Translations under genes and position numbers: made by a program
From: Octopus vulgaris
Lineage: Eukaryota
Assembly (NCBI GenBank): GCA_951406725.2
Contig: OX597837.1
Location: 28,272,001 to 28,336,000, forward strand
Reading direction: 5' to 3'
Length of the DNA stretch: 64,000 bases
Part shown: in pieces, positions 5,462 to 62,162 of the stretch
Layout of the letters: every line of letters begins with the position of its first letter
Position numbering within the stretch: position 1 is the first letter of the stretch
The notes under the pieces: generated by a model
The model's input: the letters and a program-made list of their open reading frames with translations, nothing else
The model's database searches: none
Told to the model about the DNA's origin: nothing

Positions 5462-5478
5462 TTAGTAATCAATTGTGT

Positions 5479-5484
5479 TTTATT
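5479..5484 (-). promoter_or_regulatory. Candidate polyadenylation signal AATAAA for the exon-F isoform
   Basis: TTTATT on the + strand about 107 nt downstream of the stop codon. The AT-rich context makes a chance match possible. Confidence 0.4.
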
Positions 5485-5590: not shown

Positions 5591-6401
5591 TTAACTCTCG
5601 TCAGTTATATCCTTCCCGGGAGCAGTTCCTGGTCCGGCATTCCCGTCCACGGACCCCTCCTCTACGGCCAGTTGCGATTGAACCACCTTACGGCGGAACA
5701 TAATTGCAAAGATTCCGCCCTTCGTGAAATACACGTAAGCTATTATTGCGCAGAGGCAAACGAAAATAGCGACCCGAAATAGATTGAGAGTTAGCTCCTC
5801 TTCTTCTTCTTTCTTCTTGGGGGGAACAGGTTGAGAGGTCAACTCCCGCATAGGGGCGGGGGAAGGAGCCGGACGAGACGGTTTGGGCATCACAGGTGGC
5901 GGGGAAGTGAATGATGGGGGCGATGTTGTTGGAGGCTCCACTGCGGGCTCAGCTATCGACTGAGCATCAGCCTGATCTTCAGCTGGAGCTTCAGCTTCGG
6001 CTGGAGCCTGGACTTCAGCTTGAGCCTCAGCTTCAGCTTGAGCCTCGGCTTCAGCTTGAGCCTCGGCTTCAGCTCGTGCCTGAGCCTGAGCGGCAATTAA
6101 TGCCTCTCGTTGTGCTTGCGCTGCCAGACGCCGTCTCTCTGACCGACTCATAGGCTGCTCCGACTGCGTTGGAGTAGCCTCGCGCGGCGGAGTGGCCTCA
6201 TGCGATGGTGGTGGAGTGTCTGAATGTATTTGAGTGTCCTGAATAGACGTTTCGGCGGCAGCGGCTACTTTGTGTCTGACTGGTTTTGGAGGGACGGCGG
6301 GAGGTTGATCATGCTGTGTTGGTAGCTTCCCTAAATGTAATACAGTTTGGCTAACCGCTACATTATCCGAATCCTGAGTATCCGAAGGGGTTGTCGAGGA
6401 T
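5591..6401 (-). CDS. Zasp-like gene, terminal exon F with AEAEAQ repeats, PxxP motifs and a C-terminal hydrophobic (TM-like) helix
   Basis: Acceptor AAACCTTTTCTGCAG|A (phase 2), in frame with ORF 5591-6151 (83 extra open codons upstream). Stop TAA at 5591-5593. Confidence 0.8.
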
Positions 6402-7106
6402 CTGCAGAAAAGGTTTTAAAAGCTGGCGTAAGAAACAATAGTCGCACATAACAAACGGTGCTCTTTATGGAAGGAGCAAGATTTCAGATAGTGCAACAAA
6501 ACATCTAGTCGAATCTCAACTGTATACTTTTTAAAAAAAAACATAATAGCAGTAACTAAACAAACTTAATTACTGAAAGAACTTAGGTCTTTCATAACAA
6601 AAAATAATTAAGTACATCACTGAGATAGGGCTTCAATTATTTAAAAAAAAAAAAAAGGCAATAGTATACATGTAAAAACTACAAACATCCAAAAACGAGG
6701 GGAAACAAAAGGGGGAACATTAAAACATTTAGACTTAATTAACCTAATTAGAATATTTATAATTAACTTTTAACCAAAGTAGAATATTTATAATTAACTT
6801 AATTTTAAGACAAGCCATAAATTAGTGTAATTACAATAATTGCGTTGACATAATTAGATTTAACATTAATTAACCTAATTAGTTGAACAAGAACGTTTAC
6901 GTATCTTTAATTTAATTAATTAAAATAATATACATAAATTTACCTAATTGCACAATATTTTTGAAGTGTCATCAACAAAAGAATTTATAGTTTATTTTGG
7001 CAAAACAGAATGGAATTATATAACATTTTATGTATTTCTTAAGTCCTATAGATGAGCAGAGGAAGGGATGTAACTTTGAACTGGTAAAATGAAATCAGTT
7101 TTGATA

Positions 7107-10500: not shown

Positions 10501-11354
10501 TATAGGTCTGATCAATAAGTATCCGGGCTGTTGCCATAGTAAGGAAGCTAAAACACGCAGAGTGAAGCCGCTTGACAAAGATTGACCTTGACCCCCCTCC
10601 TGTGCATGTGCACTAAGGTTTAACGTTCTAGCTAACTTCCACTGTTTATAGCAGTGCTTTGAATGAATGTGTGTAGTGTGCGATCGTCGCATTGAACATG
10701 ACAGAAGAAGTTGTCATGGTGATACCTGCTCAGAGTTGCAGAAAGTGTATGGGCCGCACACAAGACGGTTCCAAGAACCCCGAAGAAATGTCTATATTGA
10801 CGAACGTTCTGGGAGACCCGCAACCAGCAGAACTGAGAAAAACATCGCAGAAGTGCGTGAAGCTCTGTGGAGAAATCGTCGAATCACCATCCGTGAGTTA
10901 TCAGAGGATGTGCAGATTAGTTACGGCTCAGTTCAGTCCATTATCACTGACGGTCTGTGTATGAGACGCGTGTCTGCCAAATTTGTGCCAAACTGCTTCC
11001 GGTTGACCAAAAAACACTCGGGTTTCAGTTGCAGAAAGATCTTGATTGCGTCGAGAATGATGAAAACCTTTTGAAAACTTTGCGTAGGCCTCTGAGCAGG
11101 TATCGCCAAGCTTTTGGCAAAATTTGAAGCATATTCTCTGCTCAACTTTCTCTGTCATAGTCAATACGATGATCACACGCTACACACCTTCCTTCCAAGC
11201 ACTACTGTAAACAGTAGGAGTGAGGTAGAACATTAAAAGTTAATGCACATGCAGAGCAGAGCTCAAGGTCAGTCTTTGCCAAGCGGCTTCACTCTGTATG
11301 CTTTAGCTTTGTTACCTTGGCAACAATCTGGATATTTATTGATCGGACCATGTA
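10501..11354. mobile_element. Non-autonomous mariner derivative made of two inverted 5' ends
   Basis: About 210-bp inverted arms starting TA..GGTCTGATCAATAAGTATCC. The + arm encodes transposase HTH remnants (RSGRP...RRITIRELSE...MRRVSAKFVP). The - arm encodes the N-terminus MTEKVEQRICFKFCQKLG. Confidence 0.85.
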
Positions 11355-17576: not shown

Positions 17577-20105
17577 CTGTTATTGCTCTCCGAGCCTTTA
17601 TCAGCTGAAGACTTGGCGTCCTCAGCAGCAGCAGCAGCAGTAACATTAGCAGTGGTTGTGTCAGTTGTAGTAGTAGTATTAGTAGTAGTTGTGTCGCTAG
17701 CAGGAATTTCCGTAGTTTTCTTGTTGCTCGTGTCTTCCGATTGGGATTGGTTCACTGATGGACCTCCTTCACTTTGAACAGTTTGGGTATCGGCTGTGGT
17801 TTCTCCTTCTCGTGGTGCCGGGGCGGCGATTTGACCGTCAGAGACTAATTTTTCTACAGGTTGGCTTTCTTGGGCTGTGGTTTCTACTACAGTAGGGGTG
17901 GGCTCGGACGGAGTGGGTGTTTCTAATGTGGTCACTTGTTCTTGGTCCCCTGCAGATTGTTCTTTTACAGCAGCAGCTGTCTCCGCTGCTGGTTCCTCTG
18001 TCTTCGAAGAAGCGGCCGGAGGGCAACTGCTTGCTTCTATTTTGTCTTCCACACCTTCTGGCGTCTTTGGTTCAGGTTTGTCCTCGGCCGCCGGAGCTGA
18101 ATGTTCCTCAGATGTAGAGCTTTCTGTTACACTGTGTTCCACTGTCTCTGTTTTTTCTGTGACTGTTGTCGTTGTTACTGTCGTTTCAACTATTGATTCG
18201 GCTGTTGGTGTTGATTTTGTTGTTGTTTCGACCGTCGTTTCTGTTTTTGTTGTTGACGTTGGATCCGATGCTGTTGAAGTTTCCGATGTCACCGTTTCTT
18301 TTACTTCTGTTGTTTTCGCTGTTTCAGATTCCTGGACAGTTTGGGCTCCTTCCTGTGAAGCAGCAGAGGCCTCCTTTTCAACCGGAGCCGCTTCTGTAGA
18401 ACTGCTGTCTGGTTGGGTTGCCGCCTCCTTCTCGACTTCTTTAACTTCGCTTACAACAACAGAAACATCTTTACCTTCCTCCTGAACACTGGCATCAGCT
18501 TGAGTATCAGCGCCCGTGGCGGCCTCTGGTGTTGATGGGGCTTCAGTCTTTGTTGTACTTTCGACGGGAGCCACAGCAGTGTCGACCTCTGGTGCTGGTG
18601 GGGTTTCAGTTTTTGTCTCAGTTTCGACGGGAGCCGCAGCCGCGTCGCCCTCTGGTGGAGCTGCAGTCTCGACTTTATCGACTTGTTCAGCTGAACTGGT
18701 TTCCTCAGCAGGTGTCGCAGCTTCTGCCGGAGCTGCTACACTTTCCTTGTCAACAGGAGGCGCTGGTGGAGCCGATTCTTCTGCAATCTCCTGTTTAGCT
18801 TCTTCTTGGACCGTTTCCGCCTTTGTTTGTGGTTCTTCAGTTGCTGTCGGTTGTGCAGCTATAACAGTTGTCTCGCTCGGCGGAGCTTCAGCCGGTTTCT
18901 CTTGCGGTGGCACTGCTGCGACATCACTAACAAGAGGTTTAATATTAATAGTTAACGGAGTGATAGAAATTACCGAAGGATCTTTTGTTGGTTGCTGAAT
19001 GGTAACTACACCTGTGCCTTCAGGCTCCGCTGTACCATGTGCAGGTGGCACATCAGAAAGCTTCAGAACGATGCCGGTGCTGACGGTCTTAGGACGTGGA
19101 GCTGGTGCGGCCTCAAATCTTTCGCCGTAATTTTCAAAAAACATTGGCGGTGTGACATAACCCGGATCAGATTCAGAATTGTTATTACCATTATCATAGT
19201 AACTGTGCGCAAAATGCACGTGACTATATGAAGTGGTACCAGTTTTGTAAACAGTTGTACCCATTCCATCACTGCTTTGGAACTCTTTCGCAGCGTAAGT
19301 TCCCCTTGGGAAAGTACTGGATTTCTTTAAAGCTGATGTTAATTCTTCGAAGACACTATGTTTTTGAGCATCCGGCTTCTGTTTCTGGGAAACCGGTGTG
19401 ACATACGATGTTTGTTGATGCACGGGTTCGTCTCTAGTTTGCTCAGCCTGTTCTTGTTGTTCCAGTTTTTTAGCGAAAGGGCTTATCATAGATGCTCCCC
19501 AAGAACGATAACTGTAGTCAGGTACATTTCCACCTGCAGCAGGTGTCGCCGGAGCAGATTTCGCAGTGGGCTGTCTGGGCTTCGGCGCTGAAGCGGTCCT
19601 CTTTACCGGAGCGGTAGGTGTGAACGGCAAATGACTTCTTGTTGGTGGAGCAGAATGTGGCGGCGGCGGTGGTGGAGGAACATATGTCTCAATCGGTGGA
19701 TTATATGTCTGAACAGGTGGAGCGACCGGTGTCCATTGTTTCTGTGGCAAGAAAGACGGGCTCGGAATATCATAAGTTTGGGGTGGGTTGTAGGTAGGTT
19801 GAGGACTGGGAGCTCTACGCCGAGGCGGCTCAACGTGGCGTATCGGCGAATGGTGTTGATTATAAGCCACAGGTTCCGGTGACTGGAGGGGTGATGACTG
19901 ATAATAAAAGGATGAAGTAGGGGAATCTACCATTTTTAGCGGTGAAGGGTATCTAACAGGGGTTTTACATGGGGATGCCCTAGATTCTCTCACGGAGGTC
20001 GCCGCCCCGCTTCTATTGCTGCTGCTGCCGCCATGTACGGGGCCGTACTCTTTCACAGGAGTCGAGCTGCTGGTAGTCTCGTATTCAACGTCGCCCAGCC
20101 ACTTG
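17577..20105 (-). CDS. Zasp-like gene, giant exon C (843 codons, Pro-rich then Glu/Thr/Ala-rich disordered region)
   Basis: 2.5-kb stop-free frame in otherwise stop-dense AT-rich DNA. Acceptor TTTCATCTTCCGTGTAG|C (phase 2, matches exon B) and donor AG|GTATTA (phase 2). Length 2529 = 3x843. Confidence 0.88.
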
Positions 20106-24391: not shown

Positions 24392-24777
24392 AAGGAAGCA
24401 CTCCGTCGGTTACAACGACGAGGGTTCCGGTTGATCCGAACAACGGAACAGCCTGCTCGTGAAATTAACGTGCAAGTGGCTGAGCACTCCACAGACACGT
24501 GTACCCTTAACGTAGTTCTCGGGAATATTCAGCGTGACACAGAAAGTGACAAGGCCGGCCCTTTGAAATACAGGTACAACAGAAACAGGAAGTAAGAGTG
24601 AGAGAAAGTTGTGGGGAAAGAGTACAGCAGGGATCACCACCATCCCCTGCCGGAGCCTCGTGGAGCTTTCAGGTCTTTTCGCTCAATAAACACTCACAAC
24701 GCCCGGTCTGGGAATCGAAACCGCGATCCTACGACCGCGAGTCCGCTGCCCTAACCACTGGGCCATTGCGCCTCCAC
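24392..24777 (-). mobile_element. tRNA(Arg)-like SINE family B, main subtype
   Basis: Head GTGGAGGCGCAATGGCCCAGTGGTTAGGGCAGCGGACTCGCGG...TTCGATTCCC. Target-site duplication (TSD) TTCCACATAT at 24380-24389 and 24780-24789. Confidence 0.9.
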
Positions 24778-25033
24778 TGTTCCACATATAATACTTGAAA
24801 GACAGAGGACTTTGCCTAGGTATACCCTTCCAGCGACTATAAAACAAAGTCTTAAACGCTGCTTTTTTTTTTAACCAAAAGAAAGTGAAGCGGCCATGAT
24901 AACTGGCGTAATCACTAATGTCTCAACCTCAAACCGGCACTGCAATGGCCAAAGAGAGACAACATCTGATGATGTGCAACGAATTTTCCTACCAATAAGA
25001 AAAATATGTGTACAGCGGATAATTAATGACACC

Positions 25034-28968: not shown

Positions 28969-31040
28969 TACATGATCATCAAAAGAACTTGAACAGAATT
29001 GCTGACACAAGCAATACATTTTGAAGAACCATTACTAGAGTAGCCATTGGATTGAATTAAAAAAATTAATAGGAATAAAAGCAAAATAATAAGAACAATA
29101 AAAAAAAATGAGGGTTCTATTTGCGATTAAGATTTCACAAACAGGCAAAAGAGAGAAGAGATATTAAAATGAAAACCCCTTGAAATAATATATTAAAGAC
29201 AGGCCGTTACCAAGCAAAACTTGTAAAAGTGAATAAATAAAACGTTTAGCTAAGATATTTTTTTGGTTATTGCTGCTGTTGCTGTTTCAAAATCAAAGAG
29301 CTAAAACCAAAATTCCTTTGTAGCCGGAAACAAAATATTAAAAATATATAGAAATTTAGCAAAAATATTTGGACATGTAAAGCAGTAAAGGAATATTCGT
29401 CACAGAAATTCCACAAGCAAATACATTATTTCTGTAAAATTTGTAAATCATTGAATTTCCATAATGGTTTTTCTTGTGGAATTTTCTTGGATACTTCCTT
29501 CACGCGCAAAAAAAAATGGGGAAACAGGTCAGAATATATTTTGTTTATATTAAATGTAGACGTGGGCGCATTATGCGTAAATATATATGTGTATAAATAA
29601 ATAGATAGACATACCTAGATATATGCATGTATGTATGTATGTATGTATGTATGTATGTATGTATGTTGTAATAATGAAGTTAAGCCAAATAGTGATATTT
29701 TGAAATCATTTAATACGTATGTTTCCGTATGTAATATATAATAGGAAATGCATCCATTACGTAAGACTTTCTTCAGTTAAAACACATGTAAATATATTAC
29801 ACATATATGTGATATATTCATGTTATATTTATGAATATAAACATTATTTTGCTACCGTCTATGTAACTAACTCTCTAACTATGGTATAAAATCGAAGGCA
29901 ATCAATTGTAGATACAACTTTGAGAATATTGTCGTCTATTATTCGTTGAACAATTGACTGATAAACATTTTGTATTATATATGTCTACCTATTTCCATCA
30001 TTCTTTTACTGGTTTCAACCAGTAGGACGCAGCCATGCAAGGGCACAGTCTTCAAGAAATTTGTCGATCCTTTTGCTCACACTCCATTTTTTAATGTCAG
30101 ATGATTGTTTTATCAATTTCTATTTAAGGAAACGTCAAGTTAGTCATTAACAGCAGTACCTCATTTTACGCGGTATAAATGTAAACAAGTGCCCTCGTGT
30201 GTGTGTGTGTGTGTATGTACGTGTGTGTGTATGGGTGTGTGATGTGTATGATGTGAGAGAGAGACACACACATACATGTCGACGATGACCCCAGTTACAT
30301 TTCAACTACTTACAGCCCAGCTCATGGCTGATCGTATATTAGTTTGTTTAAGTACTACTTAAAAAGGTCGATATTTTCAATATGGTGAAAACTTTACTTA
30401 AGCCCTGGTAGTCAAGTCTCACATCCTAAAATTAGATCTAACGAGCAAGATCGTTCTACCCATACGAGAAGAAATGAAGCACTGCAAGACATTTGCTCCT
30501 GTTATGAGGAAATGCGACCAAGGAATAAAAGAGATTATCTCTCTCAGTCAATATTACCCGTTTTTGAAAAGAGTTGATAAGGAACACTTTCAAAAATTTC
30601 ATTGAAAGGAAATGGTAAAATACTGGTGTAAATACGGATTTTGGTTGAATGAAATGTAAAGTGGAGCTTGGTAGGATTTGAACTTAAAACCTGATAATTT
30701 TGGCACGAGGTCAAACATTTTGAGGAGAGCAATAGAATGAAGTTGGACCCAGAACAACTCTGGTTATTTATTATATAAAACTACCAAATCAAAGAGCATC
30801 GATAGGTTTGTCCAGTTTGATATAAATAACAGCCAAATCTCCCTCAAATGACTCTCTACCACCTTAAAACAGTGGATTCTAGGGTATACTATGTCTAAGA
30901 AGGAACGTGATGTTCATTGGTAGAACACTTTTTAACATGAAGAAAGGCTGAGGACGCCCGACCTTCATTCTCTTGAAAAACGCCGCCGCCGTGGTGATCT
31001 CATTCTCGCCCACAGCATCATAAGCGGAAAGTGTAACCTC

Positions 31041-31342
31041 TTGAAAGAGCTGTTCTTCACTCAAAATCCAGAGCGTCGGCTGCGGGGTCATTCCGAAAAG
31101 CTCTACCTGCGACGATTTCATCTCAATCGAAGGAGAGGAGCTTTCTCCGTCCGGGTTGCGGATCCGTGGAACAAGCTGCCAGACGAGATGGTGAAGATGC
31201 CGACGACCGCTTTGTTCAAAGCCTCCCTTGACCTCAAGTGGCCTGAGCTCTTTACATGAACACCACCCTGTACTTAACTCCATGTCCCCCTACATGGCCT
31301 TGCTATTTGCTTTTGAGCCAAATTAACTAACTAACTAACTAA
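31041..31342 (+). mobile_element. CR1-clade LINE 3' end (ORF2 C-terminus plus (CTAA)n tail)
   Basis: LRGHSEKL...FSVRVADPWNKLP matches the CR1 ORF2 C-terminal RGH..KL / RV...WN.LP pattern. A short 3' UTR ends in (CTAA)n. Confidence 0.85.
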
Positions 31343-41460: not shown

Positions 41461-41471
41461 TTCTAAAGCCA

Positions 41472-41783
41472 TATGAAGCGCCATCCAACCAAAATGCAAA
41501 TATATGGGAAACTACCACCTGTGTCATCTCTTGTGAAAGGTAGGAGAGTCCAGTTTGCCGGACATTGTTGTAGAGCTGAAAAAGAAGTAATTTCTACTCT
41601 TCTCCTCTGGAAGCCATCTACTCGCAATACCAGAGGGCGCACACTCTCCTACCCTGATGTAATCTCCAGGGATACAGGCATCCAGCAACAGGACCTCCGT
41701 AATGCTATGATGGACCGTGAAGTCTGGTGTAACATAGTAAATTCCATTGTCTCGACCACGGTCGAACAATGATGATGATGATG
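41472..41783 (+). mobile_element. 5'-truncated RTE-like LINE 3' end with (TGA)n tail
   Basis: RRVQFAGHCCR...LLLWKP...RGR...MMDREVW is typical of the RTE-type ORF C-terminus. The stop overlaps (TGA)n. Confidence 0.8.
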
Positions 41784-46630: not shown

Positions 46631-47003
46631 TATATATATATTGTGTATAAAGTATTCATAACAAATATAATGTTAGAATTATATTTAAACGGATTTTTAA
46701 GGAATTAATCGTTTGTTCTGTGTATCATTTAATTATATAATTCATAGTTATATAAACAAAAGATTTGTGATACTGATTATATATTCATTACTCTTAATTG
46801 AAGTAGTTTTGTCTCTTAGGAAACAAAGCAATTGAAAATTATTTTGGTAACGAAACTAAACCCAATATATCTGTGGGCGGGCATAGGCTTTGTGTAATTT
46901 ATCAAAACTTCCTTGATGCTTCTGTTTGAAACAATTATTTTACAGTCAAGGATGGCGACCGTTCACTTGTAACATTTGGTATATCTACATGGCTGTATGA
47001 TGG

Positions 47004-47387
47004 ATGGAAGCACTCCGTCGGTTACGACGATGAGGGTTCCGGTTGATCCGAATCAACGGAACAGCCTGCTCGTGAAATTAACGTGTAAGTGGCTGAGCAC
47101 TCCACAGACACGTGTACCCTTAACGTAGTTCTCGGGGATATTCAGCGTGACACAGAGAGTGACAAGGCCGGCCCTTTGAAATACAGGTACAACAGAAACA
47201 GGAAGTAAGAGTGAGAGAAAGTTGTGGTGAAAGAGTACAGCAGGGATCACCACCATCCCTGCCGGAGCATCGTGGAGCTTTAGGTGTTTTCGCTCAATAA
47301 ACACTCACAACGCCCGGTCTGGGAATCGAAACCGCGATCCTATGACCGCGAGTCCGCTGCCTAACCACTGGGCCATTGCGCCTCCAC
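47004..47387 (-). mobile_element. SINE family B, main subtype
   Basis: Near-identical to 24392-24777. TSD GGCTGTATGATG at 46991-47002 and 47389-47400. Confidence 0.9.
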
Positions 47388-47986
47388 AGGCTGTATGATG
47401 CATGCGTAGGCAAAAGTGGTGCAGTAAAAAAGACTGAGTATCTGACTTTAAAATATGTACTTTGGTGGATTTGATCGACAAAACTCGTCAAAGCAGTGCC
47501 TCATCAAGGCCACAGTTGAAGTGCTATATTTGTGCTTCACTCTGAAGAACGTTTTTGACGTGAGAACACTGGTATGTTTATCTCCCTTGAGCCTTCTATA
47601 TGAAACTATTATATGACGTGTAAGATCTGCCATGTTTACTTATATCTCTTTATATTCAGAACTAAATTCCTGCTAGAGGGAACTTTAACTGCTAATGTTC
47701 CAGACTCCCGTATCGGAGTTGTTTTAAATCTATTGTTTTCTCCTCCTCCCAAATTGTACGGTCTTGTACAAATATCAAAAATATAAACTATGTAAAATGT
47801 ATAGAAAAATATATGTAAATATATATGTATATAAAAAAATATATAATATAAATATGATTCTACATAAATATTTATGAATATATATAATTTAAATAGTATG
47901 TTCAAAATATTTATAAGCACTTAAAGCGATATCATAAATATCTGTTAAATAGGAATATAAACTCGCATGTCTATGTAAGCGCGCGC

Positions 47987-49056: not shown

Positions 49057-50521
49057 CTCCTACTTTAATTATTTCAGTTCATTGCGTAAAATATAAACAT
49101 AGCAACTTCTATTCTTCCGCTTCTTTCCTCTAACAGTCATCAGAACTCAATGACCCATTGATGGATACATCTCAGTTCGACCACTATGATTGATTAAATA
49201 ATCGGTGCGTCGAATAAATAACTATTTACATTTCTGTTTTGCTCTTAGCCCAGATGGCGGCCACTGGAAAAATTGTGTTTCTCGTCTTTTGCTGTTCACT
49301 TAGAAAAGTTCCTTCAAATTCATTCTCAGCAATTCGGTCAGCAGAAAATATATTTTAATGCCGCCAGATCGGTGACAATATTGATTTCTGTTTATTGAGA
49401 CGATGTTTATTTCTATTTTCAGTTATTCCTAAACCCAAAAATTCCCAGGAAGTTAAGATTGTGACTACAGTTATGCGTTGTATTTGTTCTCGCTGTCCAA
49501 ATTTTGCGGCAGCTCTAACCTAATTTCGATTTCCTTGCGTTCTTCAAAGAATACGACACCAGATCCTTAGAAGTAAAGAAATCAATTATGAAATATCACT
49601 GAAATCGCTGTTTTCATTCTCGATAGTTCTTTTTTCTTCTATACATCGATCTGTTTTCATATTGATGTTATCAAGTAGTTCCGTTCGTTGTTTTTTTTTG
49701 TTTTTTTTTTGCTTTTCTTCAAACAACATATTGGTTGTCAAACAACATATTCCAGTCTCAATAAATTTCAAATCTATATTTTTGTCTAAGATTACATTAC
49801 GAGGTTGAAGAACACAGTGCCGTGCTGCTTGGATTGCAATTTTGTTACCATTAATTATGCTTCAATCTCTGTCTTCATGTCAACAAATTCAGTGTTTATT
49901 AGAGTCTCTGAGCATTATCTCCCTCTCTCCAACACACCTAAATGAGTATTTCATAATAAACGGCCGCCAAAAGATAGTTTTTACTTTTTCGAAAAATTTC
50001 TCCCCCTCAGAATTACTTCGCAACCCAACTTCTGAATAAAGTGACAAATTTTACTTAAGTATTCGATTTCTTTGTTTCAAATCAGAAATTTCTTTACATA
50101 TTATTCTCGGTATTATTATTACCTCTACCGAAATATACTTGACTTTGTAGTCTGTAAGGGGCTAAAAGTATTAAGTTCCTTCATTCATTTGCAATACAAT
50201 TTGTCTTTCAATAACTGTCAAAGTATTTTCCCAGATTCGAGTTACATACGTCGTATGACACAGGTTGGTGGACGGAAGTAATAACGTATTGATATATTTA
50301 TACTTTAGCATGCTCATGACTTTACATTAATATCAGGCATGGGTCTATTTGTGATTGCTGCACCATATTACATAACTTCGACTGAGTAACAGTTTATGGA
50401 TGATCTTCTATTCCAAATGGTTAGATAGAAAAAGTTCTGAAAAGCTACTTACACATATCTACAAAACTTCCCAAACGAGTCTTGTGAAGGACGAAAATCC
50501 ACATTCTAACCCATATCTTAT

Positions 50522-50906
50522 GGGAAGCACTCCGTCGGTTACGACGACGAGGGTTCCGGTTGATCCGAATCAACGGAACAGCCTGCTCGTGAAATTAACG
50601 TGTAAGTGGCTGAGCACTCCATAGACACGTGTACCCTTAACGTAGTTCTCGGGGATATTCAGCGTGATACAGAGAGTGACAAGGCCGGCTCTTTGAAATA
50701 CAGGTACAACAGAAACAGGGAGTAAGAGTGTGAGAAAGTTGTGGTGAAAGAGTACAGCAGGGATCACCACCATCCCCTGCTGGAGCCTCGTGGAGCTTTA
50801 GGTGTTTTCGCTCAATAAACACTCACAACGCCCGGTCTGGGAATCGAAACCGCGATCCTATGACCGCGAGTCCGCTGCCCTAACCACTGGGCCATTGTGC
50901 CTCCAC
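50522..50906 (-). mobile_element. SINE family B, main subtype
   Basis: Near-identical to 24392-24777. TSD AACCCATATCTT at 50508-50519 and 50907-50918. Confidence 0.9.
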
Positions 50907-56432: not shown

Positions 56433-56904
56433 GCAGTGTTTCCTCCCCCAAGGGCTGCTTGAGTCTGGCCCTGTAGGGTTTCTTGAACATTCTCACGTGA
56501 GTACATATCTAACGGTGAGTTGTACTGTAGATGCATGATGCGTGGACCGTCTTCAGGGTCATTCGAGAAATCTAGTGCCTGCGTTTTCGTCGGTGCAAAT
56601 TCTTGTGTGGGTCTAGGGGCGGGCGGTTTCTTGCCTGATTTTTTCGATGGAGACACTGACCTGGGAGGTGAGACATGATGACTGGGCTGGAAACCGACGT
56701 CCCACATTTTGGCGCCGCTTGCACTCGACAGTGTACCGGCCCATGCTGGAGTTTCGTCCTGGACGACTTGGCCTTCGGCAGGTCTGGACATTGGGGCGTA
56801 TACTGGTTGAACCACGGGTCTAGGGGCGGGGCGTGGAGCTGGAGGTGGAGGTGGAGCGTGGTAAGTCTGTGGTCTGCCTCTGGTTCTACTCGGCTTTCTG
56901 ACAT
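56433..56904 (-). CDS. Zasp-like gene, exon B carrying the ZM (Zasp-like) motif
   Basis: Acceptor TTTTCTCTTTTACAG|AT (phase 1, matches exon A) and donor GC|GTAAG (phase 2). Encodes [27 protein letters not shown], matching the ZM motif (VH.QYN.P..LYS..N) of ALP/Enigma/Zasp proteins. Confidence 0.9.
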
Positions 56905-59551: not shown

Positions 59552-60117
59552 TTGGATTGTCCGGAAAGTTCGTGCCGATTTATAGTAGCTTACCTTTCGA
59601 CTTATTTTAGAACATGGTTGAATTCATAAAACAGGATTTGACTACATCTCCATTTAGAGCACAGTTTAAGCTATCTTTTCGTGGAAGAAGGTTTATATTC
59701 CTATAACCTGTGTTAATTCTGTAACCCTTTAAAATGGAAGATAAGAAAGTTCATTTTCGGTACTTGATGCTTTGGGAACCAGACAAAATTTCCTGCAACT
59801 CGGCTGGGATGTGTTACCCCACCATCTATATTCACCAGATATTGCTCCTTCGGATTCCCACTTATTCAGGTCTCTGCAGAATAGTCTTAATGGTAAAAAT
59901 TTCAATTTCTTGGATGACGTAAAAAGATACCTTGATGAATTCTTTGCCATGAAACCACCTCAATTCTGGGAAGAGGGTATTTTCAAGTTAAAGGAAAGAT
60001 GTAGACACATTGTGCAACAAAATGGTTCATATTTGGTTGATTAAAAATGTAATGGCAAGTATTTATTGACCTTTTTCTTTCCTTTAAAAATCGGCACGAA
60101 CTTTCCGGACAACCCAA
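59552..60117 (+). mobile_element. Internally deleted mariner (mellifera-like), 566 bp
   Basis: About 30-bp terminal inverted repeats (TIRs) TTGG(A/G)TTGTCCGGAAAGTTCGTGCCGATTT with TA TSDs. The N-terminus MEDKKVHFRYLML is joined to the C-terminal catalytic part with the YSPDIAPSD motif. Confidence 0.92.
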
Positions 60118-61735: not shown

Positions 61736-62162
61736 CAGGGACAAAGTCCTGTTTGCTAAACTGGTTCCTCCTCTGACTGACGGGCAAAAACTCGTAATCA
61801 TCATCTTCCTCTTCAGGTTTCGGTGGAACGAAGGAAGGGAAAGGATCGATGTAGGACGAATCACTGGGTGGAGGAGGGCCTGGTACGTAAGCCGGTGGAG
61901 CCACATGTTGATAGTGGACGGGGGGTCCACCATTGTAGCTGCTCACTTGGTATTGCGATCTGTGCGCCAGAGTGTCCTGGACTTTATGAAGCATCTCGTT
62001 ATCTTCCCATGGTTTGCTGCTCTGTCTTTGCACGCCAGCTGGTGGTGTATAACTGACACCATAGCTAGGTCCACCACCGCCATATTTCATCCCACCCTTT
62101 GGTACGTGTGGATGTGCCATTTTAGTCGGTCCTTCAAGATCTAATGGAACTGTGCGATATGT
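61736..62162 (-). CDS. Zasp-like gene, exon A (TYRTVPLDLEGPTKMAHPHVPKGG...DFVP)
   Basis: Acceptor TTAAAATTCCAG|ACA at 62163, with an in-frame TGA just upstream. Donor CCTG|GTAAG at 61735 (phase 1). Pro/Tyr/Gly-rich and GC-richer than its flanks. The start YRTVPL resembles, from memory, the YRTTPLVLPG motif of insect Zasp66-type proteins. Confidence 0.8.

Follow-up and report, generated by a model that had tools for sequence, protein, structure and literature searches.

Results

The gene and its upstream exons

The window, by which we mean the whole 64,000-nucleotide stretch of octopus DNA analysed here (G000:C24:28272001-28336000, in a genome of 2.8 Gb), contains exons of a gene whose predicted products mark it as a Zasp of the PDZ-ZM kind, apparently without LIM and with the motif PWGIRL. 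Exons and motifs of this gene given below by window position all lie on the reverse (-) strand. The PDZ exons themselves fall outside the window, at C24:28449244-354 and C24:28362769-930, 113 and 27 kb upstream of it, and were found by a search with the homologue P0005, which carries PF00595 and to which the PDZ exon of this genome is 87-89% identical. The same search placed an optional exon between the PDZ exons and exon A and left a small exon that follows the PDZ unplaced. In the first PDZ exon the sequence is PWGIRLQGGKD, marking an N-terminal PDZ as in the Zasp family, with I for F relative to the PWGFRL motif as defined in PMC5081203; the available text of that paper describes the motif as necessary for alpha-actinin binding in fly. 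We infer from this likeness that the octopus Zasp would bind alpha-actinin through its PWGIRL PDZ and, read from the motif alone, that it would localise to Z material.

Exon A (61736..62162), bounded by AG/GT, is a proline-rich linker 3' of the PDZ exons with 84-85% identity to P0005. Exon B, with 83% identity to a protein of Argonauta, exists in two forms. At full length (56433..56904, phase-2 donor at 56433) it carries the ZM motif of the Zasp family at 56450..56542 (PF15936 positions 1-31, 35.2 bits against a cut-off of 28.7), and the short form (56661..56904) stops before ZM, at an internal donor of phase 2. This internal donor falls, at 56652-56663, within the codons for the R-S-V part of RSVSP; five of six aligned cephalopod homologues retain this motif, and the sixth has RSASP. 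The donor itself may be conserved.

The preliminary description had supposed that exon F replaces a LIM end. None of the 42 LIM matches found genome-wide falls on C24, in a search that gives a lower bound, no LIM-like pattern occurs in the 50 kb downstream, and PF00412 is present in none of seven homologues. Because no LIM match was found near the gene and exon B holds a ZM, the gene appears to be of the LIM-less PDZ-ZM kind, without the C-terminal LIM of PDLIM proteins proper, and a LIM-bearing isoform was rejected on the same C24 and downstream evidence. What exon F displaces is a soluble end (...GVSDF), not a LIM end.

Three further ZM matches were found in the genome, at C7:105.96 Mb, C7:106.49 Mb and C3:144.19 Mb. 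A locus with both ZM and LIM sits on C7, where the ZM match 12 kb from a LIM match may represent a Zasp52-like gene. The window also contains many SINE-like repeat copies (for example 24400-24780, 47000-47390 and 50520-50900), as well as four short frames (10667-11074, 59745-60044, 30936-31259 and 41467-41772) that by eye resemble mariner-type transposase and LINE remnants.

Alternative endings of the gene

Exon F was originally presented as the terminal exon. It is a last exon, though not the only one: the gene has three alternative endings, and the other two, exons G and H just outside the window, are soluble. Exon G (C24:28271343-28271417, 75 bases) holds a stop codon; exon H, the ordinary last exon, which encodes the end ...GVSDF, was placed by the P0005 search downstream of F, 12 kb beyond the window start, so that exons E and F both stand ahead of it. 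Exon E (17577..20105) is an 842-residue disordered cassette.

Transcript evidence comes from sequencing runs that are predicted to be RNA, and whose joints do fall on canonical splice sites. At least half of the sampled words of exon F occur in 20 of the 24 listed runs (8 studies), none of which is on record as RNA. Eight of the 24 were mapped, as contigs only: X1, X5, X11 and X19 on exon E, and X2, X6, X10 and X15 on exon F. The 5' end of exon E is joined to the end of full-length exon B in three of four runs (X1, X5, X19) and stops flush in X11. At its 3' end, X1, X5 and X11 continue into sequence absent from the window, namely exon G, and X19 carries 105 letters beyond the exon at the same place. 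Because exon G carries a stop codon, the giant E isoform ends soluble. Splicing of E to F would be in frame, yet no such joint is among those listed in the four runs on E and the four on F. The single chain of ZM, giant exon E and exon F that had been envisaged is not supported by the contigs, in which E joins G in three of four runs.

Exon F as a transcribed last exon

The coding part of exon F (5591..6401) stays open for 269 codons, and the other two frames hold 15 and 13 stops. It begins with about 200 low-complexity residues rich in Ala, Pro, Glu and Gln, followed by a helix and a tail; the segment 5794-5696 reads LTLNLFRVAIFVCLCAIIAYVYF-TK-GGIFAIMF, with KKKEEEEE before it and RRK plus 31 residues after it, and the stop codon TAA stands at 5593-5591. 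The acceptor at 6402 is canonical and of phase 2, and its frame agrees with that of the exon B, internal B and exon E donors. The residues, coordinates and in-phase splicing first reported for this exon are accordingly as described. A candidate polyadenylation signal, AATAAA, lies at 5479..5484, about 107 bases past the stop, and contigs extend unspliced to 5482, 5476 and beyond 5470; a dinucleotide repeat starts near AATAAA, and contig ends there are no proof of polyadenylation. The loose end of the X2 contig at 5476 is presumably sequencing adapter.

A single contig spans the whole of exon F without other letters in three of the four runs (X2, X10, X15). The fourth, X6, gave only an intronic piece, a low-depth contig at 6406-6653 just upstream of the acceptor, for which pre-mRNA, DNA carry-over and an alternative start are candidates. 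Beyond F, the X10 contig extends by 27 letters (30 when the shared CAG is counted) that belong to exon B at 56664-56690, and its exon B piece ends at the internal AG/GT donor at 56661. This joint, one contig in one of four runs at depth 9.3 with 30 letters on the short side, is in frame and precedes ZM; counted from exon A, 493 residues precede the stop, and they include the helix but not ZM. The preliminary description had looked to transcripts joining exon B to F, and such a joint was read with the short form of B, ZM being skipped.

The X2 and X15 contigs begin exactly on 6401, without the shared CAG, which suggests that two paths meet at this point and that one of them does not end in base G. 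Among the exon ends read, only that of full-length exon B does not end in G, making a ZM-bearing F isoform likely; an anchored form with ZM, of 569 residues from exon A, therefore probably exists as well. The possibility that exon F is a separate gene was rejected on the X10 joint to exon B and the contigs starting at the acceptor. Exon F is a real, expressed and spliced alternative last exon of the Zasp gene.

Predicted helix and tail

Hydropathy predicts a transmembrane helix, LFRVAIFVCLCAIIAYVYF, at 5726..5782, which AlphaFold2 also models as helical, as the earlier proposal of a tail-anchor-like hydrophobic helix would have it. The best 19-residue span of exon F has a Kyte-Doolittle mean of 2.39, a value reached in none of 2000 shuffles of the exon. 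Maxima elsewhere are about 1.21-1.38 in exon E and 0.50-0.66 in soluble homologous isoforms, which in this comparison cover the PDZ, A and B parts. On hydropathy scales, then, the protein has the one C-terminal hydrophobic helix of a tail anchor and none elsewhere. AlphaFold2, run on the single sequence, gives a single helix over residues 25-74 of the C-terminal 99; its pLDDT is 80, 92 and 74 over the hydrophobic-core blocks, in a model that is weak as a whole (mean 64, pTM 0.32).

The tail (5594..5725) consists of a short hydrophobic patch, RRK and a polar/acidic end, with a net charge of -1, and extends 44 residues past the core helix or 34 past the whole hydrophobic stretch. Tail-anchored proteins have tails of about 30 residues or fewer and are inserted post-translationally. 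Tails of 44-83 residues, the range seen in the octopod and the decapodiforms, are borderline for a tail anchor and fit a type II signal anchor as well. The main awkward fact is one of charge: the 15 residues after the octopod helix carry +4 and those before it -2, and this basic cluster contradicts the positive-inside expectation for a cytosolic N-terminus.

Database searches returned little for exon F. No Pfam family matched at E up to 1; a homologue search with the exon alone gave chance matches only (four at E 0.27-0.79; one repetitive protein, P0012); an Atlas search gave no usable match for F and, for P0010, PDZ-driven matches only, under 0.8; and none of seven window ORFs had an exact match in the protein collection, which is no proof of absence.

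Decapodiform relatives

A cuttlefish gene model from Acanthosepion pharaonis (P0010, CAE1241646.1; also P0013; compare CAE1241643.1), already deposited and labelled merely 'PDZ domain-containing', resembles the octopus gene in its PDZ, ZM half and E-like region followed by a helix, here 81 residues from the end. It differs in placing ZM, E and helix in one chain, for which no counterpart was seen in the octopod runs. Its E-like part begins with the same KWL as exon E, and both contain the conserved island YRSWGA ... ELTxALxxSxTFPRGTYAAKE. The island scores 147, where shuffles average 28.5 and none of 500 reaches that value, so the two regions are, to judge by alignment, clearly homologous. The island has no Pfam match and is a candidate binding motif.

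Two more Logan clusters, P0027 and P0028, are 56-57% identical between species and keep LPRWLIPL.L..LLGAAVA.LF.YRE, a likeness on which we take them to be decapodiform. The decapodiform helix has its own exon (P0015, P0030 and P0034 read into introns), in an exon structure different from that of the octopod. P0029, found on 27 contigs, reads straight across the point where P0030 and P0034 enter an intron, and the decapodiform helix block thus appears to be spliced in RNA; the link from PDZ to helix in these animals comes from the gene model alone. GRAVY is 2.2-2.6 for the decapodiform helices; the tails that follow them are 66-83 residues long and carry net charges of -12 to -16.

All four lineage samples contain an uncharged stretch of 19-21 residues whose GRAVY exceeds 2.2. 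Common to the octopod and the decapodiforms are position and architecture, that is, a helix, a short hydrophobic patch, RRK or RGR, and a polar-acidic tail. Likeness in sequence is weak: the alignment scores of octopod against decapodiform helix regions were matched by 14, 12 and 784 of 1000 shuffles, and an Arg-rich patch seen by eye in octopod and cuttlefish was not significant (249 of 500 shuffles). The preliminary description had hung its case in part on the helix recurring in related species, and it is found there at the same gene position with little likeness of sequence, a pattern expected of either fast divergence or convergence.

Metagenome scans with the decapodiform helix block matched none of 592 stretches, and with the PDZ block 2 of 113, both unrelated PDZ proteins at 47% identity. 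Two metagenome contigs (L019:130-1332 and L020:148-2076) share a distant PDZ protein whose end differs between them: LIM-type Cys/His repeats are present in one and absent from the other. They are reported here as a putative further Zasp-like gene with alternative C-termini.

Discussion

With slightly less than even confidence, we propose that the exon F isoform sits in the SR/ER with its PDZ in the cytosol and tethers the membrane to alpha-actinin in dense bodies. Because the PDZ is N-terminal and there is no other hydrophobic stretch, the simplest insertion leaves the N-terminus in the cytosol, and it could take place as a tail anchor or as a type II signal anchor. The strongly hydrophobic helix (GRAVY 2.39) and near-neutral tail (-1) would direct the protein to ER/SR: in the available text of PMC5450235, a hydrophobic helix and low tail charge favour the ER among mammalian tail-anchored proteins, and although these rules derive from mammalian proteins with short tails, by analogy the tail charge would favour ER/SR over mitochondria. 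The PDZ, on a flexible disordered spacer of about 430 residues (exon A, short B and F) anchored in the SR, would then act as a leash holding the SR network at dense bodies through alpha-actinin. In fly, the recruitment of Zasps by ZM goes through LIM domains (PMC6910826, available text), so the internal donor of exon B would decide whether the tether joins the oligomer; by dropping ZM it would leave the isoform outside ZM-LIM oligomerisation as a plain PDZ-to-membrane leash, and its use would determine whether the tether takes a form with ZM or one without. Muscle expression of exon F is assumed in all of this. It is possible, and we suggest it only tentatively, that coleoids made Zasp an integral membrane protein, one gene supplying both a dense-body scaffold and a Z-plane SR tether.

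Entry into the ER is also the route to the sarcolemma, which counts against the SR reading. The isoform could travel there as a type II protein and anchor peripheral dense bodies as a one-molecule costamere link, an idea in keeping with tails of 44-83 residues, long for a tail anchor, with the absence of an evident ER-retention motif at the octopod C-terminus, and with the close approach of Z elements to the sarcolemma at peripheral couplings (PMC4757648, available text). We nevertheless regard it as unlikely, as Pfam recognises no extracellular binding domain in the tail. The tails of the decapodiforms are strongly acidic, like those found in the SR lumen, for example in junctate and triadin. 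We give still less credence to insertion in the outer mitochondrial membrane, where the helix would join the mitochondrial core of the fibre to Z elements in the manner of the PDZ tail-anchor protein SYNJ2BP/OMP25 or of plectin 1b: long acidic tails of 66-83 residues are unlike mitochondrial tail anchors, and GRAVY values of 2.2-2.6 with tail charges of -1 to -16 indicate ER by the rules in the available text of PMC5450235. The basic RRK cluster after the octopod helix would suit such a destination, as would the encirclement of the mitochondrial core by myofilaments (PMC4757648, in the text available).

That the anchored ZM-less isoform is a non-muscle protein or a regulator, holding PDZ partners such as alpha-actinin or actin bundles at internal membranes of other cells, or sequestering them from Z material, strikes us as distinctly improbable. 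The sole F junction read directly does remove ZM, a muscle-linked motif (PMC9751615 and PMC6910826, available text), and PDLIM proteins take part in membrane traffic of non-muscle cells (PMC10754285, likewise in part). Against this, a fly PDZ without ZM still binds alpha-actinin (PMC5081203, available text), and the flush X2 and X15 contig starts hint at an additional, ZM-bearing partner. Least credible, to the point of being very improbable, is that the hydrophobic stretch forms a helix for coiling or binding and not a membrane anchor, or that exon F is a minor non-functional ending. Such a reading is favoured by the lack of significant likeness between the octopod and decapodiform sequences, but the strongly hydrophobic uncharged stretch in every lineage sample, the open frame of exon F set against the stop-ridden alternatives, and one decapodiform F-block protein on 27 contigs all argue the other way.

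The anchored isoform has partial parallels among known proteins. SYNJ2BP/OMP25 combines a PDZ with a C-terminal mitochondrial tail anchor and differs from the octopus isoform in having no long tether and no ZM. In plectin 1b and the KASH nesprins an alternative terminal exon supplies the membrane anchor. KASH proteins have a luminal tail of about 30 residues ending PPPX, whereas the octopod C-terminus ends ...DITDES and exon F has no Pfam match. The closest working analogue is sAnk1.5, a muscle isoform of a soluble scaffold that has its own SR transmembrane helix and connects SR to myofibril via obscurin; unlike the octopus isoform it carries the helix at the N-terminus, lacks a PDZ and has obscurin as its partner, making the comparison a functional one only (PMC3386213, available text). 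An alternative terminal exon that adds a membrane anchor to a scaffold is therefore known from sAnk1.5 and would be new for the Zasp family only.

What we could consult of the Zasp/ALP/Enigma literature treats the family as soluble scaffolds. The word 'transmembrane' appears nowhere in the available text of the ALP/Enigma review PMC9751615 or of PMC6910826, and its eight occurrences in that of PMC10754285 all concern cargo, partners or references. In PMC5167519 zasp serves to mark striated muscle in an annelid. A literature search confined to openly available journals found no membrane-anchored Zasp/PDLIM, no study of cephalopod Zasp and no molecule proposed for the cephalopod SR-dense body link. 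In cephalopod obliquely striated fibres there are no T-tubules and the SR is interleaved with dense bodies, so that, if our reading is correct, the isoform would offer a candidate molecule behind an arrangement that has hitherto been known from electron microscopy, and a Zasp member with its own membrane anchor would widen what the family can do. As a candidate it is concrete, with a C-terminal epitope and splice junctions that are its own.

Among flies, the 'blocking' Zasps Zasp66 and Zasp67 are alike in having a PDZ with PWGxRL, a ZM, no LIM and several splice isoforms (PMC6910826, available text). They are described as insect-specific, so what is shared is architecture rather than demonstrated orthology. 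Exon 15e of Drosophila Zasp52 resembles exon E in being very long, disordered and alternatively spliced; it is soluble and stabilises the Z-disc, and its parallel is the E-G isoform and not exon F (bioRxiv 10.64898/2026.03.10.710607, abstract). The stop codon of exon G lies about 38 bases 5' of a GT donor. A stop within 50 bases of the last junction escapes nonsense-mediated decay, and if exon G splices to exon H, the G stop falls inside this zone.
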